From Bacteroidota bacterium (GTDB lineage: Bacteria; Bacteroidota; Bacteroidia; CAILMK01; JAAYUY01): DNA of 64,000 nt. The notes below the pieces were generated by a model. That model was not told the origin of the DNA. It saw only the letters and a program-made list of their open reading frames with translations, and did no database searches. A program made the position numbers and the translations under genes. The stretch is from positions 7,686-71,685 of the forward strand of contig JABINZ010000274.1 in NCBI GenBank assembly GCA_018698135.1, written 5' to 3'. Of the stretch, positions 23,719-37,575 are shown one piece after another. Positions within the stretch are counted from its first letter, which is position 1. Each line of letters starts with the position of its first letter.

Positions 23719-25533
23719 TTATTTGGTAGAAGAAGTGAATTCTGCGAACTGCAGTTCACTTAAATTGCGATAGATTCCACTTTCAACCTGCATGAGTTCG
23801 TCATGAGTTCCTTTTTCAGCAAGATGACCTTGATCCAATACAATAATCTGATCAGCAGCCCTAACTGTGGATAAACGATGAGCAATAACTATAGAAGTTC
23901 GTCCTTGCATTAAAACTTCTAAAGCATTTTGTACCAGCCTTTCTGATTCAGAATCCAATGAGGATGTAGCTTCATCTAAAATTAATATTTTAGGATCTTT
24001 TAATATAGCTCTGGCAATAGCTACTCTTTGACGTTGTCCCCCTGATAATTGGGTTCCTCTCTCTCCTACTATAGTATCCAGTTTCTCTGGGAATTTTTCA
24101 ACAAACTCCCAGCAATTAGCTTTTTTAGCAGCTTCAACAATTTCTTCATCAGTTGCATTTGGCTTACCGTATCCAATATTTTCCTTAATGCTGCCACCAA
24201 ATAAAAATATATCCTGAGGAACCAAAGCTATTTGTGCCCGCAATTGAGATAATGGAATTTCGCTGAATTTTAACCGATCATAAAAAAGATTTCCTTCATC
24301 AGGGTTATAAAGACGAAGTAATAAAGCAGCAATTGTAGATTTTCCAGCACCACTTGGTCCTACTAAAGCAATTAGCTGATTAGCTTTAATATCCAAATTA
24401 AGATCGTTTATTACAGTATCTTCTTTTCGAGAAGGATATGAAAATGACAGATTTTCAATCTTAATTTCACCTTTTAATTCATATGCTGAATCAATATGAA
24501 TATCATCACTTATTTCTTCTGTATCATTTTCTAGAATTTCAAAAAGATCTTCAGTAGCTCCAACAAATCGTTGAATCCGTGTAATAACAGCTGCCATTCC
24601 TCCAATATTACCAGCAATCAGAAAAGTATAAAAAAGAAATCCTACCAAATCGCCTACATTAATTTCACCTGCGCTTACCATTATTGATCCCTTCCAAATT
24701 ACAGCTATGATAGCTCCCATCATGGCCACCCCTAGAAAAGAATGAAAATCTCCTCTATACTTTCCATTTGTAATTCCAAACTTAACAACCTCTTTGATTT
24801 TTTTAGCATAACGTGCTATTTCAAACATTTCATTTGTATAGGATTTTACACTTCTTATTCCTTGTAAAGTTTCTTCAACAATTACGTTAGATTCAGCTAC
24901 TCCTTTTTGCGCTTTCCGAGATAAATTCCTGATAAATTTACCAAAGAAATAAACCAGAATCATTGTAACAGGAACAATAGCTAACATGAATAATGTCAGT
25001 TTTGGAGAATCAAACAATAATATTGTTACTGCTCCTAATACTATAATTAGTTGTCTGAGTAAATCAGCAAGCGATGATGTAAATGCTTCATGAACTAACG
25101 AAATATCGGCTGAAATACGGCTATTCAGTTCTCCTACTCTATTTTTATCAAAAAAGCTCAATGGAAGTTTTAATATATGATTGTATGTATTCTTTCGAAT
25201 ATCAGCAACACTTTTTTCTGTAACTCTTGTAAAAAGAACTACTCTTATGTAGGAAAAAATAGCTTGAACGACCAGAACTATGGCTAGAATAAGTATAATT
25301 CGATTAAGCTCAGATGTTAACCCTCCTTCATTTCCAATATTAACAATATTCCCTAATAATTTTGGAGCCACCAGATTAGCCAAACTACTGATTAATAAAA
25401 GCAGCAATCCAAGTGCATATTCAAACTTATAGGGTTTGATGTAACTGAAAAGTTTCCATACATCATTGAATCCTTGTTTACTGAATTTTTTCTTGTTTAG
25501 ATGGCTGTAGTCTGTTGAACTATGATGAGGCAT
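23719..25533 (-). CDS. ABC transporter, fused permease + ATP-binding (exporter type, MsbA-like)
   Basis: 604 aa. Six N-terminal TM helices. Walker A GPSGAGKST, ABC signature LSGGQRQRVAIARA, Walker B ILILDEATSSLD, H-loop IAHRLST. Confidence 0.85.
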   Translation of the reverse strand: MPHHSSTDYSHLNKKKFSKQGFNDVWKLFSYIKPYKFEYALGLLLLLISSLANLVAPKLLGNIVNIGNEGGLTSELNRIILILAIVLVVQAIFSYIRVVLFTRVTEKSVADIRKNTYNHILKLPLSFFDKNRVGELNSRISADISLVHEAFTSSLADLLRQLIIVLGAVTILLFDSPKLTLFMLAIVPVTMILVYFFGKFIRNLSRKAQKGVAESNVIVEETLQGIRSVKSYTNEMFEIARYAKKIKEVVKFGITNGKYRGDFHSFLGVAMMGAIIAVIWKGSIMVSAGEINVGDLVGFLFYTFLIAGNIGGMAAVITRIQRFVGATEDLFEILENDTEEISDDIHIDSAYELKGEIKIENLSFSYPSRKEDTVINDLNLDIKANQLIALVGPSGAGKSTIAALLLRLYNPDEGNLFYDRLKFSEIPLSQLRAQIALVPQDIFLFGGSIKENIGYGKPNATDEEIVEAAKKANCWEFVEKFPEKLDTIVGERGTQLSGGQRQRVAIARAILKDPKILILDEATSSLDSESERLVQNALEVLMQGRTSIVIAHRLSTVRAADQIIVLDQGHLAEKGTHDELMQVESGIYRNLSELQFAEFTSSTK

Positions 25534-25621
25534 AATAAAGTCTTAATTGAGCCTATCAATTAACAATTAGTATGCAAATGTTAAGAACTAGAAATTATGG
25601 CAGTAATTGAAGAGAAATTAA

Positions 25622-25655
25622 TTAAAAAACGCCAAAACCACGTTGAATTCAAACG
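25622..25655 (-). terminator. Possible intrinsic terminator downstream of the DUF4878-like lipoprotein gene
   Basis: Near-palindrome CGTTGAATTCAAACG at 25641..25655. On the minus strand it is followed by a U-rich run (complement of AAAAAACGCCAAAACCA). The stem is short with a bulge. Confidence 0.3.
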
Positions 25656-25682
25656 AAGTTTCAGCGTTAGAATAAATGTAAA

Positions 25683-26078
25683 TTAATTCATTTTAAGCTT
25701 CCAATCATCTCCGTCTTTCTGAAGCCGATATTTCTCTGTATTTTCATCTCCATTACCATAGATAAATTTCATTTCGACTTTTGCAGTTTCTCCATCTTCT
25801 GCAATTTCCTCACTTATAACTTCCATTGACTTAATTCCTTCCTTTTTATCCATTTCAGCTTTCCCCATGGCTAATAAACCGGACAATTTTGTCTTTGAAT
25901 CTTCATCCATTTCCTGACCACCTAAATACAAATAGTCAAATGCAGCTTCATAATCAGCTTTTTCAACTTTTTCAACAAATGATTTTACTGTGTCTGAAGG
26001 TTCTGCTCCTCCACCACCGCATGATACTAATGCGAAAAAAGACACTACAATAAGCATTGATACTAATGATCTTAACAT
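25683..26078 (-). CDS. Small lipoprotein (DUF4878-like)
   Basis: 131 aa. MLRSLVSMLIVVSFFALVSCGGGG lipobox. Acidic small domain. Family assignment from memory only. Confidence 0.45.
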   Translation of the reverse strand: MLRSLVSMLIVVSFFALVSCGGGGAEPSDTVKSFVEKVEKADYEAAFDYLYLGGQEMDEDSKTKLSGLLAMGKAEMDKKEGIKSMEVISEEIAEDGETAKVEMKFIYGNGDENTEKYRLQKDGDDWKLKMN

Positions 26079-26106
26079 TGTTTAGTTTTTATAGATTATT
26101 AAAAAA

Positions 26107-26772
26107 TTAGAATTCATATATTTTTGTTAAATGTGTGCTTTTTATAAAGCTACCAGGCAGTATAAAATCGCCTCCAACTACTGGAATTTGCAGCAAATCG
26201 AACTGATTATCGATTAAATCAATATCAATCAGTTTATATAGTTTCCAAATCAATTCAGTACAATACATTTTTCTATCAGAAGACAAATCATATTCATTGT
26301 CAAATTCAACCTTGTCTTTATATAAACAAACTGCTTTATTGGCTATTTTCTGTAGTTCAAAGAAGCTTGTTTCAGTACATCTATAAACACCTATTTTTGA
26401 AGCCTTGTTCCCTGCAACAAATGAATTTATTGATTCATTTATCAAATAATCGATACCAGATTCAGACTCACCTGGAACAGCATGTATAACATTAAATTGA
26501 TTGTTTGTGTTTACAACAATACCCACATGAGAGTATTCAGTACTTCTATCCGTCACTAATACTGCCTGACTTGCAAGACTTCTTCCTTTGCGGAAAATCA
26601 AATCACCACCATGTAGGTTTGCATGGAGCAGGAATTGATCTTTATTTTTTTGTATTAATTGATCCCTTTCAACCTTTTTGTAAATAATAAAAAGTCCAAC
26701 AACAGAAGCTATGACAATTATTAGAATTAGCAAATATCGCTTATGTAAGAAAAATCCATTATTATTACTCAC
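26107..26772 (-). CDS. YiiX-like permuted papain-fold (NlpC/P60-related) putative amidase/peptidase with N-terminal TM anchor
   Basis: 221 aa. N-terminal TM helix. GDLIF…, …YSHVGIVV…, …HA…, …C… order suggests a permuted His/Cys papain-like fold of the YiiX/DUF830 type. Confidence 0.4.
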   Translation of the reverse strand: MSNNNGFFLHKRYLLILIIVIASVVGLFIIYKKVERDQLIQKNKDQFLLHANLHGGDLIFRKGRSLASQAVLVTDRSTEYSHVGIVVNTNNQFNVIHAVPGESESGIDYLINESINSFVAGNKASKIGVYRCTETSFFELQKIANKAVCLYKDKVEFDNEYDLSSDRKMYCTELIWKLYKLIDIDLIDNQFDLLQIPVVGGDFILPGSFIKSTHLTKIYEF

Positions 26773-26899
26773 TATGTAAATGTATCATTTTTATTTTGAT
26801 TCATTCAATAATAATTAAATATTTATATTAATTAAAAATACACATATTTAAATTTATGATTATATTAAAGTATCAATAGTGAAGAGTATTGAACAAATA

Positions 26900-28537
26900 T
26901 TAAAAGAATCCAAATATCCCATTAGGGGTATATCCTAAAAACCTCAACCATGTTTCTCCTAATATCATAAAAAGAATCCATGTTATTCCCATCATAGTAA
27001 TACCATATTTGAATGTATCAGACCAACTATATTGATCAGTGCTATATAGTAATAAAGCTGGCTTACTGTTAAAAGGAAGAACGTAAACATGTTCAATAAG
27101 CAAAGCTACAGGAAAAGCAAGGCTCAATACCGGATAACCAAATTTTTGTGCAACACCAATTGCAATCGGCACAAAAATCAATGTACGCATTGTTTTCGAC
27201 TGGAAGATTAGAGCACTAAAGAGCATTGTAAATGTAAGTATTAAATATAAAACGCCAAATGGTGTACTATTATTAAAACCCAGACCATCAAAAACTGCAT
27301 TAACACTTATTGAAGGGAGGTCTGTTACCTTAAATCCAGCTCCTAGTGTATATGCTCCTGCTGAGAACAATAACAAATGCCAAGGAATATCAACTTCATT
27401 CCATTTTACAACACCAATTTTCGGTAATAATGATACAACTGCTCCAAGAAATGCTACAGCAGTTGGGCTAATTCCATGATATTTATCGGTTGTCCATAAT
27501 GCAAGCACAGCAACAAAAATTGCAACGGACCTAACTTCTTCAAAACTCACTTTCCCCATTTTTGAAAGCTCATCTTTCAGCTTCTCCATTCCTCCCTTGA
27601 TTTGAGGAACTCGTTCCTCCTTCTTTATTGGGAAAATAAACTTAGTTCCGACAAATAAACCAATAATCATAAGGGCTAAGGAAATTGGGAATGCAACTAT
27701 CATCCAATCTGTAAAAAAAATATCAGATCCAATAGCTCCACCAATTAGTGCAGCTGCTAAGAGATTGGCTCCAGATCCAGTAACAAAAGCTCCTGCACCC
27801 ATATTAATTTGCAACAAATTCTGTAGAACCAAGTTTCTGCCAAAATTATTTTTGTCCTTACCACCAGTAGCACCATATACTGCAGCAATAACCATAAAGA
27901 TCGGTAATAAAATAGCTGCCTTTGCAGTTGTTGCAGAAATAAAAGCAGAAAGAATTAAGTTGATCACAATAAAACTGACAAAAATTGAAGATGCATTTTT
28001 GCCAAACTTAATGATAAACCATAAGGCAAATCGTTTGGCAACACCCGTCTTTACCAGCATACTTGCCAATACAAACGATAAGATATTTAACCACATTACT
28101 TTATGTCCTAATTGATGATAGGCATCAACTTCTGAAAGCACATTGGTTAAAACTAATGCAATAATAAGTATCAAGGATGTTAAGTAATTTGGTATAGCTT
28201 CTGTTATCCATAAAATGATGGCAGCTAAAAAGATGGCCAGCATTGAAATATTTGTCGAGGTAAATGCTTCTGATCCAATGGCATCATATACGGTTCTTGC
28301 TTTATCACTTAATGTTGATGGATCAATATTATGCAAGAATGATAAATCTGCAAAATAGTTTAAAAAAACAAACACAATAATGGCTAGTGGAGCACCAGCA
28401 ATCAACAAAATCTTTTCAAACTTTGACCGCTCTCGCTGAGGCAACTTATTCAAGTGATAATTCCTCATGTCCAATGGATCAAATCCATTCCCATTTAATT
28501 GCTCATTATTATCTATCTGTCCTTTCTTGCTTTGCAT
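26900..28537 (-). CDS. SLC13/DASS-family (ion-transporter superfamily) anion:cation symporter
   Basis: 545 aa polytopic membrane protein with two-fold internal symmetry. ILWITEAIP and a second …LP(K/F)…GAG… repeat unit resemble DASS/SLC13 permeases. Confidence 0.55.
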   Translation of the reverse strand: MQSKKGQIDNNEQLNGNGFDPLDMRNYHLNKLPQRERSKFEKILLIAGAPLAIIVFVFLNYFADLSFLHNIDPSTLSDKARTVYDAIGSEAFTSTNISMLAIFLAAIILWITEAIPNYLTSLILIIALVLTNVLSEVDAYHQLGHKVMWLNILSFVLASMLVKTGVAKRFALWFIIKFGKNASSIFVSFIVINLILSAFISATTAKAAILLPIFMVIAAVYGATGGKDKNNFGRNLVLQNLLQINMGAGAFVTGSGANLLAAALIGGAIGSDIFFTDWMIVAFPISLALMIIGLFVGTKFIFPIKKEERVPQIKGGMEKLKDELSKMGKVSFEEVRSVAIFVAVLALWTTDKYHGISPTAVAFLGAVVSLLPKIGVVKWNEVDIPWHLLLFSAGAYTLGAGFKVTDLPSISVNAVFDGLGFNNSTPFGVLYLILTFTMLFSALIFQSKTMRTLIFVPIAIGVAQKFGYPVLSLAFPVALLIEHVYVLPFNSKPALLLYSTDQYSWSDTFKYGITMMGITWILFMILGETWLRFLGYTPNGIFGFF

Positions 28538-28599
28538 TGAATAAAATTTTGCATTGAATACAAAAAACCAACTTCTCTAGTAACAAATACTAGTGCTGC

Positions 28600-29067
28600 T
28601 TACCATTTAGAATATGGATTTTTCATCAACATAGAATTGTAATATTTTACATCTCCTGTTACTTCCTCTCCTAACCATACAGGCTTTTCAAATGTTTCGT
28701 CCTCTGAGTTTAGTTCTACTTCAGCTATTGTTAAACCTTCATTTTCTCCATAAAACTCATCTACTTCAAAAGTGTGTTTTCCTGCCTTCACTAAAAACCG
28801 AGTTTTATCTATTACACCAGGCTCACATATTTCGAGCAATTGTTGAGCTTCTTCGACTGGAATTACCTTTTCCCATTCATAGCGTGATGCACCTGACTTG
28901 CTCCCAATTCCTTTAACAGTAATAAATCCATTTTCACCTTTAATCCTTACACGAACTGTTCGCTCTGGAATTGATGATAAATAACCTTGAGTTATACGAA
29001 CCTGCTTAACTGCTAGGGCTTTAAATTCTCCTTTAACATGAAACTTACGTTCTATTTCTTGTGCCAT
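28600..29067 (-). CDS. CYTH-domain protein (triphosphate tunnel metalloenzyme; class-IV adenylate cyclase / thiamine-triphosphatase family)
   Basis: 155 aa. N-terminal EIERKF (ExExK) motif. Downstream …RVRIKGENGFITVKG…, …YEWEKVI…, …DKTRFLV…, …FEVDEF…, …IAEVEL… match the conserved charged beta-strand pattern of CYTH/TTM proteins. Confidence 0.75.
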   Translation of the reverse strand: MAQEIERKFHVKGEFKALAVKQVRITQGYLSSIPERTVRVRIKGENGFITVKGIGSKSGASRYEWEKVIPVEEAQQLLEICEPGVIDKTRFLVKAGKHTFEVDEFYGENEGLTIAEVELNSEDETFEKPVWLGEEVTGDVKYYNSMLMKNPYSKW

Positions 29068-29093
29068 ATCACTTAATTTATAACTATTACTAA

Positions 29094-29771
29094 TTATTCG
29101 TTTGCTAAAGGATCATCAATCATCCCTATAACTCGTTTAATTGCTTGCAAGTAGTTGATATTTTCAACACCTTCAAGTCCAAGATCTGCAATTGTTTTTT
29201 TGATATCATCCACTTCAGTTGACTCAGAATTAATTGATACTACTTTTGCACCATTGATAAGTACATTTGCATACTCACAAATTGTATCATTCACCATATA
29301 TCCAAACCTATGTTTGTAAACACGTACTGCTTGAAGATCTTTGTTTTCAATAATCATTGCAAGGAATTCGTCTAAAGTATATTCATCCTTTTCTAAAACA
29401 GGCATTTCAACCATAAACGCTGGAAAGACCTCTTCTTCAAGCACATTTTTTTTCATAGGAAACTCACCTTTCATTAATGGATTCCACTGTTCCAAACCAT
29501 CAACAGTTTGTACATAGGTTTTAATATCCATCTTACCATCACGTATTTTGGTGTTATTAATATTGTTAGTACGTGATAATATATATATTTCGTTTGAACT
29601 TCGCTCCCACACTTTTTTTGGTACTGGTACTGATAAGCGTACCATTAGTTTGTAAGCTTCGTCAAAAGACTGTCCAAATGATCTAAATTCAAATCTTGGT
29701 TTTGACTGTTCGCCAATTTTCATTTCTTTTTTTGTCATTTTAATCCTTTTTGCTTGACTGGATGTTAACAA
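29094..29771 (-). CDS. Uncharacterised protein, tandem paralog B (possible divergent CYTH-like fold)
   Basis: About 45% identical to the product of 29816..30454 (shared KPRFEFR(S/A)FG, …KIR…MDIK…, …GEFPMK…, …EVFPAF…, …YTL..FL…, …ICE.A.V.INGA…, …NY..AIKRVIG…). The true start is probably an internal Met (MTKKEMKIGEQSKPRFEF… or MKIGEQ…). Confidence 0.5.
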   Translation of the reverse strand: MLTSSQAKRIKMTKKEMKIGEQSKPRFEFRSFGQSFDEAYKLMVRLSVPVPKKVWERSSNEIYILSRTNNINNTKIRDGKMDIKTYVQTVDGLEQWNPLMKGEFPMKKNVLEEEVFPAFMVEMPVLEKDEYTLDEFLAMIIENKDLQAVRVYKHRFGYMVNDTICEYANVLINGAKVVSINSESTEVDDIKKTIADLGLEGVENINYLQAIKRVIGMIDDPLANE

Positions 29772-29815
29772 TTCAATTATTACTAACTACTTAAAGTCAA
29801 AATAGTGAACTTCTT

Positions 29816-30454
29816 TTAATTTTTTGTTAGATGCAAGTGATCCATAGGACGAGGAAACAAACCGATCACCCTTTTAATAGCCAATGGATAATTAACATTT
29901 TCTTCTTGTTCGTTGAAACCAATTAAGGTTTTTGTATCTAAAATATCTTTTAAATCTTCTGATTCGACTGCAATTGTTTTAATAAGTGCCCCATTTATTA
30001 TTACTTCTGCAACCTCACAAATACAGTTATTAATTGTATAAGCATATCGTTTTTTCTGAGTGTAAACTGCGATAATATCAGGATCAGGGCTAATTAATTC
30101 ATCTAGGAATTGTACAAGTGTATATACATCACGTTCAAATGGAGGGGACTCTACACCAAAAGCGGGGAAAACCTCAGATCTTATAATACTGGCTTTCATC
30201 GGAAATTCTCCAACCAAATAAGGTTCCCATAATTCTAAAGACTTCTTTTCAGAAAGCAGGACCTTAATATCCATCATTTTATTCCGAATTTTGACATTAT
30301 TCTTTATATTTCCGGCAGACATCAGATACACTTCATATATATCACGAATTCGCTCCACTTTCGAAAGCTGATTCATCTTATTGATCAATTCCTCTAAATG
30401 ATGTCCGAATGCTCTAAATTCGAAACGTGGTTTTATTTGATTTTCAGTAGTCAT
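29816..30454 (-). CDS. Uncharacterised protein, tandem paralog A (possible divergent CYTH-like fold)
   Basis: 212 aa. MTTENQIKPRFEFRAFG… See paralog B. No family recognised with confidence. Confidence 0.5.
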   Translation of the reverse strand: MTTENQIKPRFEFRAFGHHLEELINKMNQLSKVERIRDIYEVYLMSAGNIKNNVKIRNKMMDIKVLLSEKKSLELWEPYLVGEFPMKASIIRSEVFPAFGVESPPFERDVYTLVQFLDELISPDPDIIAVYTQKKRYAYTINNCICEVAEVIINGALIKTIAVESEDLKDILDTKTLIGFNEQEENVNYPLAIKRVIGLFPRPMDHLHLTKN

Positions 30455-30543
30455 ATTTGCCTTCGCCTTTATTTATGTATTTTAAAACTCTTGATATTAT
30501 CTTTCTAGCTTTTATTCAATAAACTCATAAAAACAATGCTCTT

Positions 30544-31278
30544 TTACATCGTTAAATCAATTTTATAAAGCTTATTATTAGGGTCTGAAACAACATAAGC
30601 CTCTGTTTCATCATCATTTACTACAATGCCTTCAACACCTGAAATAGGTAAATCATATATTTTCAATGCAATTCCTTCTGTTGTGCATTGTGTTAGAGTT
30701 CTTGACTCATCACTAACAATCCAGATAGTATTACTTATATGATGGTAGAATAAACCAGAATAATCGTGAGCAAATCCTAAAACTAGTTGAGTAACTGAAT
30801 TACTTTTCACATCATACTTAATCAGAGTTCCCTGCATTTTCTCTTTCAGCATGTAATATACTTCGTCAGAATGATTGTATGTAAGACCTTCCAAACCTGA
30901 ATTACCGGGCGTTTGAAGAATATCATATGTTGATTGAAAAACACCTATACTATCTAACTTTATTAAATTACCTTCCCTCTCTTCACAAATACAAATTTCT
31001 GAAGTTTCAGAGTCAACTGTAATACCTTCAAAATCATCACCTTTAAATGGCAACTCCCTCAACACATCTCCAGTTAATGATATTTGATATATTTTACCTT
31101 GATCGCTAACCGTGTATAACGATAGCTTATCTTTAGAATATGCAAGTCCAGATGGTTCTTCTATTTGAATTTCATACGAGTCTTTAATAATTGACATATC
31201 AATATCAAAAGATTCAGGACGGCATGAAAACATGAATAAGAGCCCTAGTATTGAAAACAAAAGAAATCTATTTTTCAC
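30544..31278 (-). CDS. SdiA-regulated/YjiK-like beta-propeller lipoprotein
   Basis: Lipobox …LLFMFSC. EPSGLAY…LYTVSDQGKIY…G…LR.LP..GDDFEGIT pattern matches the YjiK/SdiA-regulated family as recalled. Confidence 0.5.
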   Translation of the reverse strand: MKNRFLLFSILGLLFMFSCRPESFDIDMSIIKDSYEIQIEEPSGLAYSKDKLSLYTVSDQGKIYQISLTGDVLRELPFKGDDFEGITVDSETSEICICEEREGNLIKLDSIGVFQSTYDILQTPGNSGLEGLTYNHSDEVYYMLKEKMQGTLIKYDVKSNSVTQLVLGFAHDYSGLFYHHISNTIWIVSDESRTLTQCTTEGIALKIYDLPISGVEGIVVNDDETEAYVVSDPNNKLYKIDLTM

Positions 31279-31353
31279 TTAACTATTCTTTAAGTTACAT
31301 AGCATGTTAATAAATATGAAGCCCGTTTAATACGAGCTTCATATTATATTTTA

Positions 31354-33069
31354 TTATTGCACTATATAACTTTGCCATTTACTTGAATCGTCTTTGAAAT
31401 CATCAGAGCTATCAAAAGCACCATCTGCAGGAGAATCATCAACTGCTAATAGGTCACCATTCATACCAAAATAATATTCTGATGTAGCTGTTGCTATTCT
31501 GGCATAAAATTTAATGGTAGCACCTGAGGTACTGGTAGTTCCATCCAAAGTACCATCAGTTTTTTCAACATCATGGCCTTTCATATTTATGGTTACACCT
31601 GTTTGGGTAAATGAAGCATCATCTTCACCTTTTACTTTATTTGCTTTTACATATTTGGCTTCAGTACCAGCAAAATAAATTCTAGCTTCAACAATTGTTT
31701 CAGAAGAAACATACTCAAGAACAACATTAATATCGTTAGTAGCATCTGGTGTTGCTGGAAATTCGAATTTTGAAAGTGTAACTGGGGCTTTATTAGTGTA
31801 TGTATTCCACAAAGTTGGATCAGCTTTAAAATTATCTGCATTGGTAGGATCTCCACCATTTGCTTCATCATCAACAATAACATTTCCATCTTTGTCATAA
31901 TAAAACGCTGTTCCGTTTGATAATGTTAATCGAATATAGAATGAGATTTTAACACCAACATCACTTGAGTTTCCTACTACGGAACCACCAGCATCTTCAA
32001 CATCAAGATTTGCCATGCTAATGGTTACTCCTGTTTGAGTAAACGAAGCGTCATCCTCTCCTTTTACTTTATTTGCTTTTACATATGCGGGTGTACTACC
32101 TGCTGCAAAATAGATACGCGCTTCATCAACAGTGACTGTACTTGTATAAGCTAGCTCAACTGTTTCGTATCCTGCAGTTGGTGTTTCGCTATATACTAAG
32201 TCCAAAGTTGGAGCAGAAACACCACCTGAAATTGGAGTATATGAATACCAAAGTGCAGCATCAGCTTCTAACGTTGTTAAATCCGAAACTTTATTATCTT
32301 TATCATAATAATACACATTTGCATTATCAAGAGTAACAGCAACGAAGAATGAAACTTTTTCGTTTTCAACATTTAAATCTGTCATGGTAACAACAGCTTC
32401 GTCAGTACCAATTACACCTGTTAATTTGTTACTCACATTATAAACTGGAGTATTTCCTTTTGCATAAAACACAGAAACATCTGTAACTGTTTCAGTAGTA
32501 GCATATTTCACAGTTACTTCTATAGTATTGCCAGCAGCCGGAGCAGCATTAAATGTTGTTGTTACGCTAGGAATACTTGCATCACCCTTGTTTGCAGCAC
32601 CTGGTGTAGCTTCAGTTCCATTTAACCATACATCTCCTCCATCAGGTATTCTACTGAAAGATGTACCGTCCGCTTGAGAAGGTGGGCAAGTTACTAAATC
32701 AAGTAAAGTCCCATCAGGTTTTCCAAAAGAAACATCCTCGCCACCAGAACTAATAGATACAGTTAATTCTGGTTGAGTCACAGTATAATATCCTTTAGCA
32801 GCAATTTTAGTTCCCTGAGGAATAACAAAACCACCTTTTGGATCAGCTGCGTCATTGATTAAATATCCTGAGATATCTGCTTCAACTGTACCCTTGTTAT
32901 AAAGCTCTACCCAATCACCTTCAACGGTAGGATCCGGATGCTTTGAAAAAATCTCATTTAAGACAATATCCGAATCTTCGGGAGTAGGAGGTTCATATGG
33001 ATCATCCTTTACACAGCTTGACAACAGCGTTGTTATAGCTACAATTGTTAATAATAATAAATTTTTCAT
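31354..33069 (-). CDS. Lipoprotein with N-terminal lamin-tail domain (LTD) followed by three about-145-aa internal repeats
   Basis: Lipobox LLSSC. LTD signature IVLNEIFSK…GDWVELYNKG…DISGYLIND….GYYTV. Three repeats (…VSVFYAKGNTPVYNVSNK…, …ARIYFAAGSTPAYVKANKVKGEDDASFTQTGVTI…, …ARIYFAGTEAKYVKANKVKGEDDASFTQTGVTI…). Confidence 0.65.
   Translation of the reverse strand: MKNLLLLTIVAITTLLSSCVKDDPYEPPTPEDSDIVLNEIFSKHPDPTVEGDWVELYNKGTVEADISGYLINDAADPKGGFVIPQGTKIAAKGYYTVTQPELTVSISSGGEDVSFGKPDGTLLDLVTCPPSQADGTSFSRIPDGGDVWLNGTEATPGAANKGDASIPSVTTTFNAAPAAGNTIEVTVKYATTETVTDVSVFYAKGNTPVYNVSNKLTGVIGTDEAVVTMTDLNVENEKVSFFVAVTLDNANVYYYDKDNKVSDLTTLEADAALWYSYTPISGGVSAPTLDLVYSETPTAGYETVELAYTSTVTVDEARIYFAAGSTPAYVKANKVKGEDDASFTQTGVTISMANLDVEDAGGSVVGNSSDVGVKISFYIRLTLSNGTAFYYDKDGNVIVDDEANGGDPTNADNFKADPTLWNTYTNKAPVTLSKFEFPATPDATNDINVVLEYVSSETIVEARIYFAGTEAKYVKANKVKGEDDASFTQTGVTINMKGHDVEKTDGTLDGTTSTSGATIKFYARIATATSEYYFGMNGDLLAVDDSPADGAFDSSDDFKDDSSKWQSYIVQ
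31560..32110. repeat. Intragenic direct repeat (about 85 bp units, about 85% identical, about 445 bp apart) encoding the repeated KANKVKGEDDASFTQTGVTI motif
   Basis: Compare 31580..31665 (ggttacacctgtttgggtaaatgaagcatcatcttcaccttttactttatttgcttttacatat…) with 32024..32110 (ggttactcctgtttgagtaaacgaagcgtcatcctctccttttactttatttgcttttacatat…). Confidence 0.7.
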
Positions 33070-33128
33070 ACTAAATGGTTTAAGTTTTAATAAAATATTT
33101 GTTAAATAATCTTTAATAATTAAATTTT

Positions 33129-34754
33129 TTAGAAGTCGATTTCACATCTCCAAATAAGCATGCTGTAATCAAATCCCGTACCTGATTCCAAAATGTAATC
33201 GGCATAATCGCCAGCTCCATTTGAATACCTATCATGGTCAACATAAGAATAGTTAAGCATGAATTTAACATTGCGGGAAGCATAATAATTGAGACCCAAA
33301 GAAAACTGACCTTTTTGTCCTCCACGAATGCCATGGTCAAAATCGTTTAAATTAATATAAGAATAACGCGCTGCTACTTCCCAAGCGCCTCCTTTATTTT
33401 CAGCTTTAACCTGAGTAAATTCCCCTTCACGATAATTCCAAGGATGATTTTCACCTGTTAGTAAATAGGCTGATTGCACATAAAATCCACTGAAATTAAT
33501 TGGATCTGAACCGGCTTTCATAGCCAATCTATTAAAGTGATACTCACCCGTCATTCTCCAAGGACCAAATGAAATTGCAGCGTCAAAATTAATATTGGTA
33601 GCCGTTTTAACACCACCAACTTTTGCTACAGTAAATTCTAATTCTGAAACTTTGGTTTCATCTTTTGGATCGTATTTAATTCGGCTATCTGGATGCTTAT
33701 ATAGGCCAGGAGTGCGAATTGAATACCCACCGCTTAATGAAATAAGTTTTCCAGGATCATTTATTATGTAATAAGCGGCTCTAGATGAAAAGCCTTTCAT
33801 CGGCTGAGCTCCTTGCATAATACCTTCATTCGAAGGAATATCTTCATCGAAACTACCTTTGAAATAATTTGCATCACCTTCTAACTGATCGTGTTGATTT
33901 CTTGTTTCTTCGGTATGAACTGCAGCTGAAAACATATAACTTGTATTCCAAGATGCCCAGCCTATACCAATCCTACGATTAGGGTTGAATTCTGCAACAC
34001 TCGCCCTTTCAATTATTTTTAAATAACGTGAAGTTGTGGTTTGTTGCATACCTTGTGGCATACGAAACTGACCAATTCGTAATTGTGCCCATGGTTTACC
34101 AGCTTCTCCAAAATATTTCCGTAAATAAACATCTTTGATGTCAACCATATTTCCATCAAAATCAAAATCGATTTCAGCGTACCAGTTATCACCAACATTG
34201 GCTTTAACGGCAAACCTCATTCTTCTTAACTTTAATAATTGAGATGGTACATCTATTTGGCCAGCTAATTTGTTTTCATCTGGAGTTAGATTGTGATCAT
34301 AGTTATCAAAATATGTCGCACCATCTAAGTATACTCGATTGTCTAACCAAAGTTTGTAATTTTTATCTTTGGATTCAAACGCAATAAACCCTCCGCGTGA
34401 CTCTACAATCAATTCTTGTCTTGATACTTTTTGGCCATATTGATTGAATCTAACATTAGTCGTTAAAATAACATCAATTTGCCCTTTATAATCATCTGTG
34501 TTTACACGAAATTCATCGTAGTCAGCATGATTAAAAATTAGAATTTTAGTTGATCCAGTATTTTGAATAGAAAAAGTTCCATCATTTTTTGACAAAACTT
34601 CCATTTTTGAGCCCTGAAATCGGATGCTCGCACCTTCAATTGCTTTTCCAGTTTCTGAATCAACAATTTTACCTGTGATTGATTCCTGAGCGATTGTGGT
34701 CCCTGTTATTGCCATCAATAACAGAAAAATCATAAATCTGTAAGTTCCTCTCAT
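33129..34754 (-). CDS. Outer-membrane porin, probably phosphate-selective porin O/P family, with N-terminal CarbopepD_reg-like domain
   Basis: 541 aa. Signal peptide. ITGKIVDSETGKAIEGASIRF…NDGTFSI is a carboxypeptidase-regulatory-like domain. Beta-strand-rich remainder ending with an aromatic residue (…RCEIDF). The family call leans on genomic context (adjacent PiT and DUF47). Confidence 0.4.
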   Translation of the reverse strand: MRGTYRFMIFLLLMAITGTTIAQESITGKIVDSETGKAIEGASIRFQGSKMEVLSKNDGTFSIQNTGSTKILIFNHADYDEFRVNTDDYKGQIDVILTTNVRFNQYGQKVSRQELIVESRGGFIAFESKDKNYKLWLDNRVYLDGATYFDNYDHNLTPDENKLAGQIDVPSQLLKLRRMRFAVKANVGDNWYAEIDFDFDGNMVDIKDVYLRKYFGEAGKPWAQLRIGQFRMPQGMQQTTTSRYLKIIERASVAEFNPNRRIGIGWASWNTSYMFSAAVHTEETRNQHDQLEGDANYFKGSFDEDIPSNEGIMQGAQPMKGFSSRAAYYIINDPGKLISLSGGYSIRTPGLYKHPDSRIKYDPKDETKVSELEFTVAKVGGVKTATNINFDAAISFGPWRMTGEYHFNRLAMKAGSDPINFSGFYVQSAYLLTGENHPWNYREGEFTQVKAENKGGAWEVAARYSYINLNDFDHGIRGGQKGQFSLGLNYYASRNVKFMLNYSYVDHDRYSNGAGDYADYILESGTGFDYSMLIWRCEIDF

Positions 34755-34778
34755 ACTTTTAATTTTTGTTTATATCAT

Positions 34779-36620
34779 TTATACTTTTCCAATAATAATT
34801 GAAAGATTTTCATCTTTATTTACTTTTAGTTTTTTCCTTAATCTATACCTACTCATTTCAACGCTTTTAGGTGAAATATTTAAAAGGGATGCTATTTCCT
34901 TTGTAGTTAAGTTAATTCGAATGAGTGTACACAATCTTATCTCATTAGTAGTTAGGTTAGGATAGTTATGCAATAGCCTTTTTTTGAACTCTGAATTAAG
35001 TTTCTCCGCATATTGGTAAAATGTATCACGTTCTTTATCAACATTAAGGTTTTGATTAATCTGGAGCATTAATTGATTGTACTCCTTTTCACCGATGTTA
35101 TTCCCTTCCTGAAGGCGCACTTTGAAGTGCATAATTTGCATTTTAATATTTTTCAAAAAATCATTTTTCTGAATAATACTAAGTGCCATATCTGTAAACT
35201 CTTTGCTCTGTATTTTGTTTTTACTTAAATTTTTCTCAAGATCATTATTTCGTTCCTGTATCCTTAATTTTTCTTTTAACGAATTGACCTTCTTTTCTTT
35301 TTTTGTTAACTGTTTTTGTAGCGATTTATACTTTATTTTCCGATACCTGTGATAGATAAGGAAACCTATAATAATCAATATAGCTATACCAATTTCTATT
35401 AGTAAGTTCCTAGAAATTTCCTTATTTGCATTCTCAGCAGATTCATCCTTATCGCCTTTTGTTTGGACAATTTTAATAGAATCAGTCGATCCTTTTACTT
35501 CAGAACCAACACTATCAATTGTTATAATATTTTCAATCACTTTAGGTTCTTCTATTTGCTGGTTAACAACAACTTCTGTCTTTGTTTGCACAGGCAACAT
35601 AAATACATTATTAACAAAAAACAATAAGAATAATGATACGACACCAGCAATTATTGGAGTTGTAACCCAGCCTGCTGTAATTCCTCCCAAAACACGAAGC
35701 TTAATATTACGCCCACCTTTAATTAATCCTATACCAATAATGGCACCTACAATAGCTTGTGAACTTGATACTGGTACCAAGGGAATTGCTGGGAGCCCAA
35801 TACTTTGAAATGCATTTGACAAACCTTGTGAAGAGAAAACGAATAATACCAATGAATGAGCTAAAACAACAATCATAGCTGTTTCTCCTGAAAGTGGCAT
35901 TAAATTGCTACCAACAGTTTCCATGACCTTACGTGAATAAGTAAAAATTCCAATAGCAATTGCCAAACCTCCAATAAAAAACAGCTGTTGAGCACCAGAA
36001 AATGAGATTATACCAAAATCCAAAGTTTCTAAAGGAATTGCTGGAACAAAAACACCCATTACGTTTGCAATATTATTTGCTCCTAAACTAAATGATCCAA
36101 AAGCACCTACTGCTAATAAACCTGTACGTAAATAGGCATCTCTTTTTAATAAATGAAGATTTACTTTTTTTAAGACAAAATTTAGAATTAAGTATAGTAT
36201 AATTGCGAAAACGGCACCCATTATTGGGCCACTTATCCAGGTTGAAATAATTTTAATTAATGATGTTGTATCTGTTACATTCCCAGTATACAAATTCCAG
36301 CCAATAATAGCTCCAACAATTGCTTGAGAAGTGGAAACTGGTACTTTAAGGCGAGTCATCCAAAAGACTGTCAAAGCTGCTGCTAAAGCCACTGTAAATG
36401 AGCCTGCTATAGCATCTACAGCTCCTAATTTCCCAAGTGTATGAGAAGCACCTGCTCCCTGAAAAACAGCACCAAGTATTACAAAAATTCCAGCAATAAT
36501 GGCTGCTTTTTTAAATCTGACCATACGTGAACCAACCGCTGAACCAAATACGTTAGCGGCATCGTTAGCACCTAATGACCAACCTAAAAACAACCCACTG
36601 GAAAGAAAGAGTAATACCAT
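34779..36620 (-). CDS. PiT-family inorganic phosphate transporter fused to a C-terminal TM helix, coiled-coil and LuxR/GerE-type HTH DNA-binding domain
   Basis: The N-terminal ~340 aa contain both PiT repeat signatures (GANDAANVFGSAVGS… and GANNIANVMGVF…) in a polytopic membrane domain. Then one more TM (LLIEIGIAILIIIGFLIY), a K/E-rich heptad region, and a C-terminal …LTTNEIRLCTLIRINLTTKEIASLLNISPKSVEMSRYRLRKKLKV matching the LuxR-type HTH. Confidence 0.7.
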   Translation of the reverse strand: MVLLFLSSGLFLGWSLGANDAANVFGSAVGSRMVRFKKAAIIAGIFVILGAVFQGAGASHTLGKLGAVDAIAGSFTVALAAALTVFWMTRLKVPVSTSQAIVGAIIGWNLYTGNVTDTTSLIKIISTWISGPIMGAVFAIILYLILNFVLKKVNLHLLKRDAYLRTGLLAVGAFGSFSLGANNIANVMGVFVPAIPLETLDFGIISFSGAQQLFFIGGLAIAIGIFTYSRKVMETVGSNLMPLSGETAMIVVLAHSLVLFVFSSQGLSNAFQSIGLPAIPLVPVSSSQAIVGAIIGIGLIKGGRNIKLRVLGGITAGWVTTPIIAGVVSLFLLFFVNNVFMLPVQTKTEVVVNQQIEEPKVIENIITIDSVGSEVKGSTDSIKIVQTKGDKDESAENANKEISRNLLIEIGIAILIIIGFLIYHRYRKIKYKSLQKQLTKKEKKVNSLKEKLRIQERNNDLEKNLSKNKIQSKEFTDMALSIIQKNDFLKNIKMQIMHFKVRLQEGNNIGEKEYNQLMLQINQNLNVDKERDTFYQYAEKLNSEFKKRLLHNYPNLTTNEIRLCTLIRINLTTKEIASLLNISPKSVEMSRYRLRKKLKVNKDENLSIIIGKV

Positions 36621-37270
36621 TACATCATAACTTTGATAGAAAGCTGTGAAAGAATATCTGCTACTTCTTCAGCACAGTCTGAGACCTGCTCAATGTGTAA
36701 TGCAAAATATCGCAAGTGGATCTTCTGGGCAAGTTCTAATTCATCCAATTCCTGAAATAGTTTGAGTTTAATATCATTTGCAAATTTGTCTGCTTCACGT
36801 TCATAAAGGTAAATTTTGTGAATATAATCTTTAATTCGCATGGGCTCAGTAAAAAATAACCTTGCTGCAGAAATAGCTGCATTGGCAGCTGCTGTTGAGA
36901 TTTCGGTTAAGCGGGAATAATCTTTCACCAAAGCAGCTGGTATTTCAGGAACTTCAACCTCAAATTCACCTACATCTGTTTTAGCTGTATCAATTATATC
37001 ATCTAATTTGTCAATAAGCAATATTACATCTGCAGAATGCTGTGGGATAAGTGAGTGTATAAAAAAATAGTTTTCAATTTTTCGTTGAATTGAATCTGCT
37101 CTTGCTTCAATTTTATCAAGTCGTTTCAAATTTTCCTTAAAGCGATCTTTATCATCATCCAGATAATTATTTATTGCTTCATTAAAAAGCATGACGCCCT
37201 CTTCAATTGCATTTATAAACTCATCTACATGATGAATAACCTTTCCTGCTGTCTTAAATAATTTTGACAT
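36620..37270 (-). CDS. DUF47-family (PhoU-like) phosphate-transport regulator
   Basis: 216 aa, all-helical. Matches the YkaA/DUF47 partner typically encoded immediately upstream of pit genes. Its stop overlaps the PiT start codon (ATGA at 36620). Confidence 0.6.
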   Translation of the reverse strand: MSKLFKTAGKVIHHVDEFINAIEEGVMLFNEAINNYLDDDKDRFKENLKRLDKIEARADSIQRKIENYFFIHSLIPQHSADVILLIDKLDDIIDTAKTDVGEFEVEVPEIPAALVKDYSRLTEISTAAANAAISAARLFFTEPMRIKDYIHKIYLYEREADKFANDIKLKLFQELDELELAQKIHLRYFALHIEQVSDCAEEVADILSQLSIKVMM

Positions 37271-37523
37271 TTCTTCTTTGACTTAAATCAACACTTTGGA
37301 TTCAAAATAACAACCAGTAAATTCAATTTCGAGACGCTAAAATACTTCAAACATTCATTAATAATAGCTGTAGAGTGTTAATTGTTTTCTAAAACACTAA
37401 TTATCAATAATGTAAAACAAAGGATGTAGTGTAATTTACAAAAACGTTGTACTATTTCCTACTTCACTAGTAAAATTCAATATTCATTAATTGATGTTCA
37501 ATTAGCTGTAAAAAATGAAATAG

Positions 37524-37575
37524 GTTAAAAAAGAAAAAACCTCACAAGCTTCTCTTCATCGAAACCAGTGAGGTT
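37524..37575 (-). terminator. Putative intrinsic terminator of the arylsulfotransferase gene
   Basis: 8-bp stem AACCTCAC/GTGAGGTT (37538..37545 / 37568..37575). On the minus-strand RNA it is followed by UUUUUUCUUUUUU (complement of 37524..37537). Lies 22 nt downstream of the stop at 37597. The loop is unusually long (22 nt). Confidence 0.5.

Follow-up and report, generated by a model that had tools for sequence, protein, structure and literature searches.

In the genome of a Bacteroidota bacterium, two tandem genes were identified whose products, designated PAR-A and PAR-B, are predicted from structure models to be cytoplasmic proteins of the eight-stranded triphosphate-tunnel fold, in an altered form that has so far not been classified. 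In many phyla, PAR proteins are encoded beside a hydrolase or are fused to one, usually in a phosphate-uptake cluster, which suggests that condensed phosphates are handled by an undescribed route. The preferred reading, held with about even confidence, is that PAR handles tri- or polyphosphate together with a phosphoanhydride hydrolase in a phosphate-acquisition cluster, and that condensed phosphate is imported and cleaved inside the cell. For the PAR family and the PAR-CYTH system, no description was found in the literature. All positions refer to the window, a stretch of 64,000 nucleotides (contig JABINZ010000274.1, positions 7,686 to 71,685).

Organization of the gene cluster

The initial annotation had described four packed minus-strand genes, coding for two paralogs, a CYTH protein and an SLC13-type transporter. 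These four open reading frames were recovered at the same coordinates (Table 1), tightly packed with gaps of 26-77 nt: 44 nt between PAR-A and PAR-B (77 nt with the start at 29738), 26 nt between PAR-B and CYTH, and 62 nt between CYTH and DASS. For PAR-B, the NCBI call gives a protein of 214 aa starting at 29738, which is the probable true start.

The four genes are best explained as the downstream (3') half of a larger, conserved set of co-directional genes for phosphate acquisition. The co-directional run spans about 10.4 kb from 37270 to 26900 and starts with the gene for PhoU_div, followed by PiT-HTH, porin O/P, the LTD lipoprotein, the phytase-like propeller, PAR-A, PAR-B, CYTH and DASS; the SdiA-regulated/propeller lipoprotein gene thus adjoins PAR-A on its upstream side. 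The cluster may be controlled by phosphate starvation; a generic promoter scan of the window gave no evidence for a promoter, terminator or Pho box. None of the PADLOC anti-phage defence models matched PAR-A, PAR-B, CYTH or DASS.

Table 1. Genes of the co-directional cluster in the window, in the direction of transcription
Gene product	Position	Strand	Characteristics
PhoU_div (DUF47) protein	36620..37270	-	PF01865 E 1.2e-17
PiT (PHO4) phosphate transporter + coiled coil + C-terminal LuxR/GerE HTH	34779..36620	-	PF01384 E 2.4e-56, PF00196 E 4.5e-7
Outer-membrane phosphate-selective porin O/P, N-terminal CarboxypepD_reg domain	33129..34754	-	PF07396 E 1.2e-33
Lamin-tail-domain (LTD) lipoprotein	31354..33069	-	PF00932
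Lipoprotein, SdiA-regulated / phytase-like beta-propeller domain	30544..31278	-	PF06977 E 1.5e-21, PF13449 E 1.9e-9
PAR-A (paralog A)	29816..30454	-	212 aa; predicted divergent TTM/CYTH-fold protein, R-x-E-x-R signature
PAR-B (paralog B)	29094..29771	-	225 aa from TTG start; 45% identical to PAR-A
CYTH/TTM protein, canonical, NeuTTM-like	28600..29067	-	155 aa, begins MAQEIERKF; PF01928 E 1.5e-15
DASS/SLC13-family anion transporter	26900..28537	-	545 aa; PF00939 + TIGR00785

Fold and conserved residues of the PAR family

The PAR family consists of 1,735 clusters at 50% identity, spread over about 15 phyla, and the clusters from gut and rumen Bacteroidales hold thousands of member sequences. In the source databases, members are labelled "hypothetical" or, for fusions, "Ppx/GppA". 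PAR-A and PAR-B are 45% identical over 208 aa (E 4e-54), as had been estimated. They were also correctly placed outside recognised families, since no match was identified in Pfam or NCBIfam, nor among PDB sequences, either with the single sequences or with a profile searched up to E 10. Among the families matched by any of 47 PAR members at E up to 1, PF01928 was absent.

The predicted structure of PAR is a TTM/CYTH-like fold, with an eight-stranded antiparallel beta tunnel and flanking helices. This agrees with the earlier proposal that the paralogs belong to the CYTH/TTM superfamily. In the sequence-profile comparison, PAR and CYTH align collinearly but non-significantly (E about 0.6), so that their homology rests on the predicted structure. 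The motif PRFEFR(S/A)FG is found in the paralogs, and the N-terminus of PAR carries R10-x-E12-x-R14 where the CYTH hallmark is E-x-E-x-K; this pattern shows no variation in three clades or among the Ppx-fused forms. The proposed change of the first Glu to Arg is real, with R10, E12 and R14 conserved family-wide, and the mapping of E-x-E-x-K to R-x-E-x-R, followed by K-x-R and K, holds in the collinear but non-significant alignment. The motifs occur in the same order in both proteins (CYTH/PAR: Y29/Y43, R39xR41/K55xR57, K52/K64, K88xR90/K134xR136 and E101/E147).

Thirteen residues of PAR (R10, E12, R14, Y43, K55, R57, K64, E74, W76, K134, R136, E147 and E164) are at least 93% conserved among 142 diverse representatives, and the same residues are invariant in 40 Ppx-fused N-domains, in which position 166 varies. 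They include the basic tunnel residues R14, K55, R57, K64, K134 and R136, of which those at alternate strand positions (K55-x-R57, K64, K134-x-R136) are predicted to line the tunnel. Of each acidic pair of CYTH, one Glu is retained (E12, E74, E147 and E164), and D62 is present in most members. The E-x-E of CYTH beta8 is missing: E164 alone is conserved, with E, T or V at position 166 and A, C, N or S at position 162. Since both PAR-A and PAR-B retain every family-invariant tunnel residue, neither is a decayed copy.

In the published two-metal model, the ligand of metal site 1 is the first Glu of the beta8 E-x-E, and metal site 2 is formed by both Glu of E-x-E-x-K and the second Glu of E-x-E (PMC4641920). 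Judged by this model, the substrate-holding site 1 of PAR is plausibly intact and the water-activating site 2 appears incomplete, E164 being assignable to either site. The incomplete site 2 makes canonical gamma-phosphate hydrolysis by PAR unlikely. The four strictly conserved tunnel Glu, mostly accompanied by D62, look more enzyme-like than expected for a passive binder. It is therefore considered possible, though rather unlikely, that PAR itself is an active metal-dependent phosphohydrolase with a specificity unlike that of its CYTH neighbour, which would give a two-enzyme degradation pathway instead of an enzyme with a helper. Its substrate could be pyrophosphate, a polyphosphate of four or more phosphates, or a nucleotide, for instance pppGpp. 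The retention of these acidic and all basic tunnel residues, including in the Ppx fusions, and of the full set in both tandem paralogs, would fit such an activity; against it, two of the three water-activation ligands at site 2 of characterised TTM hydrolases are gone, one being Arg and one variable. A precedent is provided by plant TTM1/2, which are pyrophosphatases without E-x-E-x-K and E-x-E, and TTMs lacking these two motifs differ in specificity (PMC8233210).

PAR-B-type copies share clade-specific residues with the single-copy PARs of other phyla, and by these residues PAR-B is assigned as the ortholog of the single-copy ancestral form; PAR-A is a Bacteroidales-specific extra copy. Bacteroidales and gut metagenome loci contain orthologs of PAR-B with 70-81% identity. 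The tandem duplication was identified only in some Bacteroidales, and PAR-PAR-CYTH occurs in only 24 of 80 loci, all with the Bacteroidales-type SdiA-regulated gene. Of the triplicated CYTH/TTM module that had been suggested, the TTM-type paralogs with an altered motif have thus stood, but the triplication is not general. The ancestral module is one PAR and one CYTH.

Association with CYTH and Ppx/GppA hydrolases

The third gene codes for a canonical CYTH protein, as initially annotated: it matches PF01928 with 58 bits (cutoff 23.2), starts with EIERKF, and all 14 canonical residues (E4, E6, K8, R39, R41, K52, E64, E66, K88, R90, E101, D103, E116 and E118) are invariant in the partner orthologs. 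Its best PDB matches, 3typ and 2fbl, are both the N. europaea inorganic triphosphatase NE1496 (E 1e-16), and by this similarity to NeuTTM it is probably an inorganic triphosphatase.

Of 73 PAR-anchored genome loci, drawn from about 15 phyla, 66 have CYTH on the same strand and at most 700 nt downstream of PAR. Among 69 metagenome loci anchored on CYTH, 55 have PAR upstream of it, often less than 10 nt away. The pairing is not obligate, with CYTH missing from 7 of the 73 PAR loci and PAR from 14 of the 69 CYTH loci, but the linkage is far beyond chance. The two proteins may also be in contact.

A Ppx/GppA exopolyphosphatase is the partner in other lineages, either fused to PAR or encoded after it. 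When a PAR-Ppx protein was used as query, nearly all of the 119 best relatives had a length of about 495-525 aa, with PF02541 as the only precomputed Pfam match. In four scanned fusion proteins, PF02541 begins at residues 213-231, after the PAR domain, and PAR-A aligns to residues 2-212 of one fusion protein with 33% identity (E 1e-35). In the KSB1 locus L008, a short Ppx/GppA (E 4e-64) stands in the CYTH position, in a TctC-TctA-PhoU_div-PiT context. The structure model of a PAR-Ppx fusion contains two well-folded domains joined by a disordered linker, with a pTM of 0.62, and therefore gives no evidence for a fixed PAR-Ppx interface. The fusion genes examined in three genomes lie outside phosphate clusters. 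The fusion to a short Ppx core would also fit a catalytically active PAR, if PAR finishes the short chains left by Ppx.

The same partners bear on the idea that the module is a bacterial VTC counterpart, with PAR as a TTM-type polyphosphate polymerase coupled to a membrane protein and making or moving polyphosphate. This is highly improbable: the fusion and replacement partners are degradative enzymes, the alternative transporters (TctC/TctA, ABC with binding protein) are importers, SPX and VTC membrane domains are absent, and close tunnel similarity was not found, VTC matches to PAR ranking well below ThTPase, ygiF and archaeal TTMs.

Phosphate context and transporters

The link to phosphate, initially only assumed from a nearby uptake locus, was found to be stronger: the conserved cluster itself includes PiT, PhoU_div and porin O/P, and fusions of PAR with Ppx/GppA exist elsewhere. 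PiT, PhoU_div, porin O/P or a Na/Pi cotransporter-PhoU fusion occurs within 6 kb in 51 of 80 loci. Porin O/P was identified in 38-39 of the 80 PAR loci, and most of the metagenome loci anchored on CYTH have it as well; PhoU_div, the usual partner of PiT, adjoins PiT in 27-30 of 80, and the PiT-HTH fusion recurs in 17 loci from genomes and 13 from metagenomes. The upstream position of the SdiA-regulated lipoprotein gene relative to PAR is shared by 28 of 80 loci, and by ORF clustering the LTD lipoprotein family (c5) is present in 35.

For the transporter, DASS membership is supported by PF00939 (E 3e-52) and TIGR00785 (204.8 bits, cutoff 198.6). Gene-neighbourhood mapping showed that the expected synteny of PAR-CYTH with DASS is conserved in related genomes, the gene after CYTH being DASS in 29 of 53 loci. 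The coupling to an SLC13-type transporter holds to this extent; other lineages use TctC/TctA (7 of 53) or an ABC system with binding protein, so that the transporter is interchangeable. The latter two are importers by construction, and DASS may work in the same direction.

TctC-type receptors usually bind carboxylates. The closest solved relatives of the DASS protein are DiT1, DiT2.1 and bacterial DASS (6wtw/6wu1), all dicarboxylate carriers. The imported anion therefore need not be condensed phosphate. DASS and TctC/TctA being best known for carboxylates, the transporter could take an ordinary di- or tricarboxylate, with PAR and CYTH in an unrelated housekeeping role and the proximity to phosphate genes as a lineage-specific accident. 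This reading has very little probability, since the association recurs in about 15 phyla with differing gene orders, phosphate-transport genes are as frequent as given above, and the clusters are without carboxylate-catabolic genes. In addition, the two S-N-T motifs which bind substrate carboxylates and Na+ in the DASS family (PMC7553777) are non-canonical here, namely S-A-T (201-203) and S-K-T-M-R (447-451). Both Asn are thus replaced, by Ala and Lys, and A202, T203, S447, K448, T449 and the nearby R451 are invariant in 40 orthologs.

Alternatively, PAR might act, alone or with CYTH, as a regulatory sensor of a phosphoanhydride signal in the cytoplasm, such as PPi, PPPi, polyP or an alarmone; it would adjust nearby transporters like SPX domains or PhoU and would have no catabolic role. 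In favour of this, PAR consistently adjoins transporters and PhoU-type proteins, its catalytic site 2 appears incomplete, and in some phyla PAR is preceded by sigma-54-type promoter elements and by the genes of a dedicated two-component system whose sensor is PhnD-like. A sensor is nevertheless improbable: among the 150 best representatives, PAR was fused only to a hydrolase and never to a transporter or DNA-binding domain, and the transporter family switches while PAR-CYTH stays, which is unexpected for a specific protein-protein regulator.

A proposed route for condensed phosphate

In the preferred reading of imported and internally cleaved condensed phosphate, the substrate would cross the outer membrane through the O/P-type porin and would be taken up by the DASS carrier, or by TctC/TctA or the ABC system in other lineages. 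PAR would bind inorganic tri- or polyphosphate, its basic tunnel residues holding the phosphoanhydride chain. The true hydrolase would be its partner, the NeuTTM-like CYTH triphosphatase in the window and an adjacent or fused Ppx/GppA in other lineages, and cleavage to Pi would take place in the cytoplasm. In Vtc4p, the acidic patch is swapped for basic residues (PMC4641920). A bolder version, regarded as doubtful, is that PAR is a non-hydrolytic, chain-threading polyphosphate tunnel, functionally a bacterial counterpart of the basic-patch Vtc tunnel, which forms a dedicated and so far unrecognised pathway with the hydrolase and the interchangeable importer. If so, many uncultured sediment phyla and gut and rumen Bacteroidales would take in condensed phosphates from outside without prior cleavage and break them down in the cytoplasm, not extracellularly.

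The classification of the TTM/CYTH superfamily drew on PF01928 members only (PMC8233210); PAR is a large branch that escapes PF01928. The R-x-E-x-R signature with one Glu per pair can be read as a natural experiment that probes the two-metal mechanism. Many "Ppx/GppA" proteins have an N-terminal stretch of 200 residues without annotation, to which a fold can be assigned and for which a likely role is suggested. Gene context ties tunnel proteins to phosphate acquisition, by the O/P porin, PiT and swappable anion importers. According to a recent paper, polyphosphate metabolism is still regarded as intracellular cycling only (PMC13318637). The testable question is raised whether bacterial uptake of pyro-, tri- or polyphosphate, followed by cleavage inside the cell, exists.

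Comparison with known systems

Pho-type scavenging loci contain OprO/OprP porins and PiT with PhoU_div. An O/P-type porin, PiT and PhoU_div also form part of the cluster in the window, and their order relative to PAR-CYTH is conserved. The cluster differs by lacking PstSCAB and PhoBR, and the Bacteroidales PiT bears its own LuxR-type HTH. In the searchable literature, no description of tunnel proteins within Pho-type scavenging loci was found.

The DASS family includes the phosphate carriers Pho87/90/91; the PDB search with the DASS protein detected no match to a Pho90/91 entry. The window protein shares TIGR00785 with the exchanger clade (LaINDY, plant DiT1/DiT2) but, unlike these and Pho87/90/91, has both S-N-T motifs altered and an extra N-terminal segment. 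As in the exchanger clade, positive side chains are present at the Na+ sites of cotransporters (PMC7553777).

Many proteins of about 500 aa that are annotated only as Ppx/GppA (PF02541) begin with a PAR relative, which takes up their N-terminal 200 residues. Such proteins have a short Ppx core after PAR, in contrast to the long E. coli-type Ppx with its C-terminal extra domains; the window itself contains no Ppx. A purely functional analogy exists to CYTH-CHAD (E. coli ygiF) and stand-alone CHAD, a polyP-binding module with or beside a TTM or Ppx hydrolase (bioRxiv 10.1101/567040). CHAD is all-helical and of unrelated fold, whereas PAR is itself a tunnel domain.

The VTC tunnels, comprising the polymerase Vtc4 and the catalytically silent Vtc2/Vtc3, resemble PAR in their TTM fold and in basic residues at the acidic patch, and also in the arrangement of an altered tunnel paralog beside a membrane protein in phosphate homeostasis. 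Plant TTM1/TTM2 (SSN cluster 7, Vogt et al. 2021) likewise combine a TTM fold with loss of E-x-E-x-K and E-x-E, and are specific for pyrophosphate; in contrast to PAR, they are eukaryotic, kinase-fused and tail-anchored, with the residual motifs W/Y-x-R-x-R and D-x-Y. Among the closest known proteins are the CYTH/TTM triphosphatases of PF01928 (NeuTTM NE1496, CthTTM, ygiF, SaTTM and AtTTM3). PAR is missed by PF01928 and differs from them by R-x-E-x-R in place of E-x-E-x-K and by a single Glu in each acidic pair. It exceeds its partner CYTH by about 50 residues and is the dedicated partner of a canonical TTM or Ppx.

The Four-Gene Unit and the PAR Family

The ORF list agrees exactly with the initial annotation, which had placed four closely packed minus-strand genes in this region (see table). 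The gaps between them are 44 nt between the two paralogs (77 nt if PAR-B starts at 29738, as in the NCBI call), 26 nt between PAR-B and the CYTH gene, and 62 nt between the CYTH gene and the DASS gene, which encodes an SLC13-type anion transporter. The paralogs, designated PAR-A and PAR-B, share 45% identity over 208 residues (E 4e-54), in line with the earlier estimate. The claim that they belong to no recognised family was also borne out: neither gave a Pfam or NCBIfam match, and no PDB sequence was matched by phmmer with single sequences or by hmmsearch with a 47-sequence profile. The other two genes had been named correctly as a CYTH gene with an EIERKF motif and a DASS/SLC13 permease. A role in anti-phage defence was considered and rejected, since a PADLOC search of the four proteins gave no match.

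Features of the window (coordinates in nt)
Feature	Coordinates	Strand	Description
Giant ORF	17278-23718	+	2,146 aa; many PKD-like unit repeats, by eye
DUF4878 lipoprotein gene	25683-26078	-	downstream of the DASS gene
YiiX-like permuted papain (Peptidase_C92)	26107-26772	-	downstream of the DASS gene
DASS permease	26900-28537	-	545 aa; PF00939; TIGR00785 204.8 bits (cutoff 198.6)
CYTH gene	28600-29067	-	155 aa; begins MAQEIERKF; PF01928 58 bits (cutoff 23.2)
Paralog B (PAR-B)	29094-29771	-	225 aa, TTG start (ORF list); 214 aa in the NCBI call
Paralog A (PAR-A)	29816-30454	-	212 aa (ORF list)
PiT (PHO4)	34779-36620	-	613 aa; transporter domain, coiled coil of ~100 aa, C-terminal LuxR/GerE helix-turn-helix
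PhoU_div	36620-37270		
Genes with Por_Secre_tail sorting domains	37597-40805		
782-aa protein	45341-47689	+	N-terminal TPR repeats, C-terminal caspase (Peptidase_C14) domain
Giant ORF	48105-55040	+	2,311 aa

In a search of 5.8 billion proteins, 371 PAR relatives were identified, of which nearly all were annotated as "hypothetical" and not one had a Pfam domain; for one member, from Caldithrix, UniRef had automatically assigned the name "CYTH domain-containing protein". When 1.84 billion representatives at 50% identity were searched with a profile, 1,735 clusters were obtained at E <=1e-3 and 1,127 at E <=1e-10.

Fold and Tunnel Residues

An AlphaFold2 model of PAR-A, based on the 47-sequence alignment, contains eight strands and six helices (pLDDT 93.2, pTM 0.85). 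When this model was compared to the PDB with Foldseek, the top 35 places were all occupied by triphosphate tunnel metalloenzymes (TTM), among them mouse and human thiamine triphosphatase (E 1.6e-8), ygiF, class IV adenylate cyclase, SaTTM and AtTTM3. Membership of PAR in the TTM superfamily, as proposed in the initial annotation, is thus supported by the predicted model at the level of the fold, and no unrelated fold was obtained. By sequence, PAR lies outside the CYTH family: it matches no CYTH model, has no E-x-E-x-K motif, and its E-x-E motif is incomplete.

The PAR profile and the profile of the partner CYTH proteins did not align significantly in hhalign (E 0.65 with the narrow and 0.58 with the diverse PAR alignment), though the alignment is collinear motif by motif. 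In it, Y29, R39-x-R41, K52, K88-x-R90 and E101 of CYTH correspond to Y43, K55-x-R57, K64, K134-x-R136 and E147 of PAR; since the motifs are collinear, all basic tunnel residues are retained in PAR. The beta1 strand reads R-F-E-F-R in PAR versus E-I-E-R-K in CYTH, so that R10 takes the place of the first Glu, a replacement which had been noticed from the sequence together with the line-up of the strand motifs. Over 142 diverse representatives and 40 Ppx-fused N-domains, R10, E12, R14, Y43, K55, R57, K64, E74, W76, K134, R136, E147, E164 and N186 are invariant or nearly so, and D62 is retained in most members. For each acidic pair of CYTH (E4/E6, E64/E66, E101/D103 and E116/E118, CYTH numbering), PAR retains one Glu.

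In the published two-metal model of the TTM proteins, the E-x-E motif of beta8 contributes its first Glu to site 1, which holds the metal-triphosphate complex, and site 2 serves in water activation by both Glu residues of E-x-E-x-K together with the second Glu of E-x-E (PMC4641920). Site 2 looks incomplete in PAR, because an Arg stands at position one of E-x-E-x-K and a variable residue two places past E164, while site 1 may be intact, with E164 as a putative ligand of site 1 or site 2. The four conserved tunnel Glu residues nevertheless look enzyme-like, which argues against a purely binding role. PAR might therefore be an active hydrolase with a specificity unlike that of CYTH, an alternative which, set against the altered site 2, is somewhat unlikely but is the foremost of the rivals.

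Conserved Neighbourhood of PAR

A total of 80 PAR-anchored loci was compared, from Bacteroidota, KSB1, Calditrichota, Cloacimonadota, Acidobacteriota, Desulfobacterales, Myxococcota, Spirochaetota, Wallbacteria, Riflebacteria, Marinimicrobia, Aminicenantes, Anaerolineae, Synergistia, and Gamma- and Alphaproteobacteria. A CYTH gene was identified on the same strand within 700 nt downstream of PAR in 66 of the 73 loci with enough downstream sequence. Reciprocally, of 69 metagenome loci anchored on CYTH, 55 have PAR as the gene immediately upstream, in many cases 3-10 nt away. All canonical residues are invariant in the partner CYTH, which is closest to the inorganic triphosphatase NE1496 of N. 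europaea (E 1e-16). The gene linkage described in the initial annotation is thus conserved in relatives, with CYTH following PAR and DASS coming next in 29 of 53 loci. A metagenome protein of 341 aa (P0441) was rejected as a natural PAR-CYTH fusion; it is a deletion chimera, in which PAR (...AIKRVIG) is joined to CYTH (...ATRITQGYL) without the CYTH beta1 (E-x-E-x-K) strand.

The two PAR copies of the window are less general. Tandem PAR genes were found in 24 of the 80 loci, all of them with a Bacteroidales-type SdiA-regulated gene upstream, and the B-type copy is the only one in the majority of metagenome loci anchored on CYTH, human-gut contigs among them. In two-PAR loci, the clade-specific residues found in single-copy PAR of other phyla are shared by the B-type copy, which lies downstream, and the divergent duplicate is the A-type copy, which lies upstream. 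Every tunnel residue is invariant in both types. The triplicated module of the initial annotation is thus an elaboration specific to this lineage; the general form is a pair of PAR and CYTH.

Clustering of neighbouring ORFs revealed as recurrent families Porin_O_P (38-39 loci), PiT (33-38), an LTD lipoprotein (35), an SdiA-regulated/phytase-like propeller (28) and PhoU_div (27-30), in addition to a Na/Pi cotransporter-PhoU fusion and a divergent unit of PhnD-like binding protein, histidine kinase and sigma-54 response regulator. In 51 of the 80 loci, one or more genes for phosphate transport lie within 6 kb of PAR, which substantiates the phosphate link suspected earlier. In the window, the order is PhoU_div, PiT-HTH, porin, LTD, propeller, PAR-A, PAR-B, CYTH and DASS; roughly twelve Bacteroidales genomes share this order, and the genes flanking the block are unrelated.

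Fusion of PiT to a helix-turn-helix domain was seen at the start of the cluster in 17 loci from genomes and 13 from metagenomes; this conserved protein may be a phosphate transporter doubling as the transcription factor of the cluster. Of 18 loci with the divergent regulator unit, 6 (L013, L026, L028, L035, L039 and L063) have sigma-54-type promoter elements (GGCAT-N5-TTGC) immediately before PAR; the 53 others have none, and the background rate is 0.01 per 410 nt.

Several further families were observed in these loci. Family c14, whose proteins of ~315 aa match CYTH weakly (E 0.002) and carry a signal or anchor segment at the N-terminus, adjoins PAR-CYTH in loci L001, L012, L016, L019, L027, L036, L053, L058, L068 and L071, from Wallbacteria, Spirochaetota and others, and could be an exported tunnel protein. 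A 391-aa protein with two tandem adenylate kinase domains (c18; L014, L015, L020, L044) sits between PiT-HTH and the porin in some Bacteroidales phosphate clusters. In two Pseudomonadota/Gammaproteobacteria loci (L054, L069), a calcineurin-like phosphoesterase (Metallophos, c42, 471 aa) follows PAR-CYTH, replacing the transporter. Bacteroidales of the human gut and the rumen often have the arrangement porin, PAR-B, CYTH, DASS (human gut metagenome contigs L092, L094, L096, L097 and L100), with named matches to Rikenellaceae, Tidjanibacter and Cryptobacteroides; the protein clusters, with as many as 2,986 members, consist throughout of sequences that are unnamed or labelled hypothetical.

Ppx/GppA as a Second Partner of PAR

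Several long PAR representatives include the start of a Ppx/GppA (exopolyphosphatase) domain. With a PAR-Ppx protein as query, the best 119 matches are nearly all ~495-525 aa long, with 98% query coverage and PF02541 as the sole precomputed Pfam domain, which begins at residues 213-231 in the four examples scanned. The window's PAR-A aligns to residues 2-212 of one such protein with 33% identity (E 1e-35). In KSB1 bacterium 4484_87 (locus L008), a short stand-alone Ppx/GppA of 304 aa (4312-5226, +; E 4e-64) follows PAR in the place of CYTH, in an otherwise unchanged context of TctC-TctA-PhoU_div-PiT. From the fusions and from this replacement, PAR thus has partners from two unrelated enzyme families, CYTH and Ppx/GppA. 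From what is established for these enzymes, the substrate class common to both is linear inorganic tri- and polyphosphate, and this is the strongest pointer, an indirect one, to what PAR handles.

In an AlphaFold2 model of the fusion, both domains are confident; no fixed interface between them is predicted, since the linker is disordered and the pTM is 0.62. No phosphate cluster was found around the three PAR-Ppx fusion genes examined in context. That PAR, encoded beside transporters in the clusters and fused to an enzyme here, is a sensor regulating these transporters seems quite improbable.

The Transporter

After CYTH, DASS is encoded in the 29 loci already counted and TctC/TctA in 7 of the 53, with an ABC system including a binding protein elsewhere. 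Import was argued as the direction of transport, because TctC/TctA or a binding-protein-dependent ABC system substitutes for DASS. The nearest solved structures to the window's DASS are plant DiT1/DiT2.1 and bacterial DASS (6wtw/6wu1). In DASS cotransporters, two S-N-T motifs bind the substrate carboxylates and Na+, and in the exchangers basic side chains are permanent surrogates of Na+ (PMC7553777). The hairpin-tip motifs of the window's protein are instead S-A-T (residues 201-203) and S-K-T-M-R (447-451), where A and T of the first and S, K, T and R of the second do not vary among 40 orthologs, a second subtype at 40% identity among them. By analogy, this DASS protein probably works without Na+ and would suit a substrate of strongly anionic character. 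What these transporter families are known to carry is carboxylates; that the module takes up carboxylates and plays no part in phosphate handling is, with phosphate-transport genes so frequent nearby, nonetheless very improbable.

The YiiX-like and DUF4878 genes were rejected as members of the unit on the evidence of the former, which is absent from the 80 related loci and therefore probably lies outside.

Proposed Role

The best reading, to which about an even chance is given, is that of a phosphate-acquisition cluster. Condensed phosphate would cross the outer membrane via the O/P porin, would be imported by DASS (or by TctC/TctA or the ABC system), and would be cleaved in the cytoplasm, where PAR would hold the chain of tri- or polyphosphate in its basic tunnel and act together with the true hydrolase, CYTH or Ppx. 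Besides the tunnel Glu residues and the carboxylate substrates, two observations stand against it: the pairing of PAR and CYTH is not obligate, and a scan of 25500-38000 for sigma-70 promoters and terminators gave no regulatory signal, with site counts below or no higher than those of shuffled sequence and no site in any intergenic gap.

Comparison to Known Systems

In literature searches, no description of the PAR family, the PAR-Ppx fusions or the PAR/CYTH cluster was found, in agreement with the initial annotation, to which no system of such an architecture was known. The most complete published TTM classification drew on PF01928 members only (PMC8233210), which would have left out PAR; the partner CYTH gene is an ordinary PF01928 member. 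Polyphosphate polymerase Vtc4p has basic residues in place of the acidic patch (PMC4641920). Like the Vtc tunnels, PAR carries basic residues at the acidic-patch positions, but it is not a Vtc member, and there is hardly any likelihood that the module is a VTC-like synthase. Plant TTM1/2, which are without E-x-E-x-K and E-x-E, are pyrophosphatases (PMC8233210); PAR likewise is without the hallmark motifs, but is not a member of TTM1/2. Like the CHAD domains, to which it does not belong, PAR would serve TTM or Ppx enzymes as an accessory.
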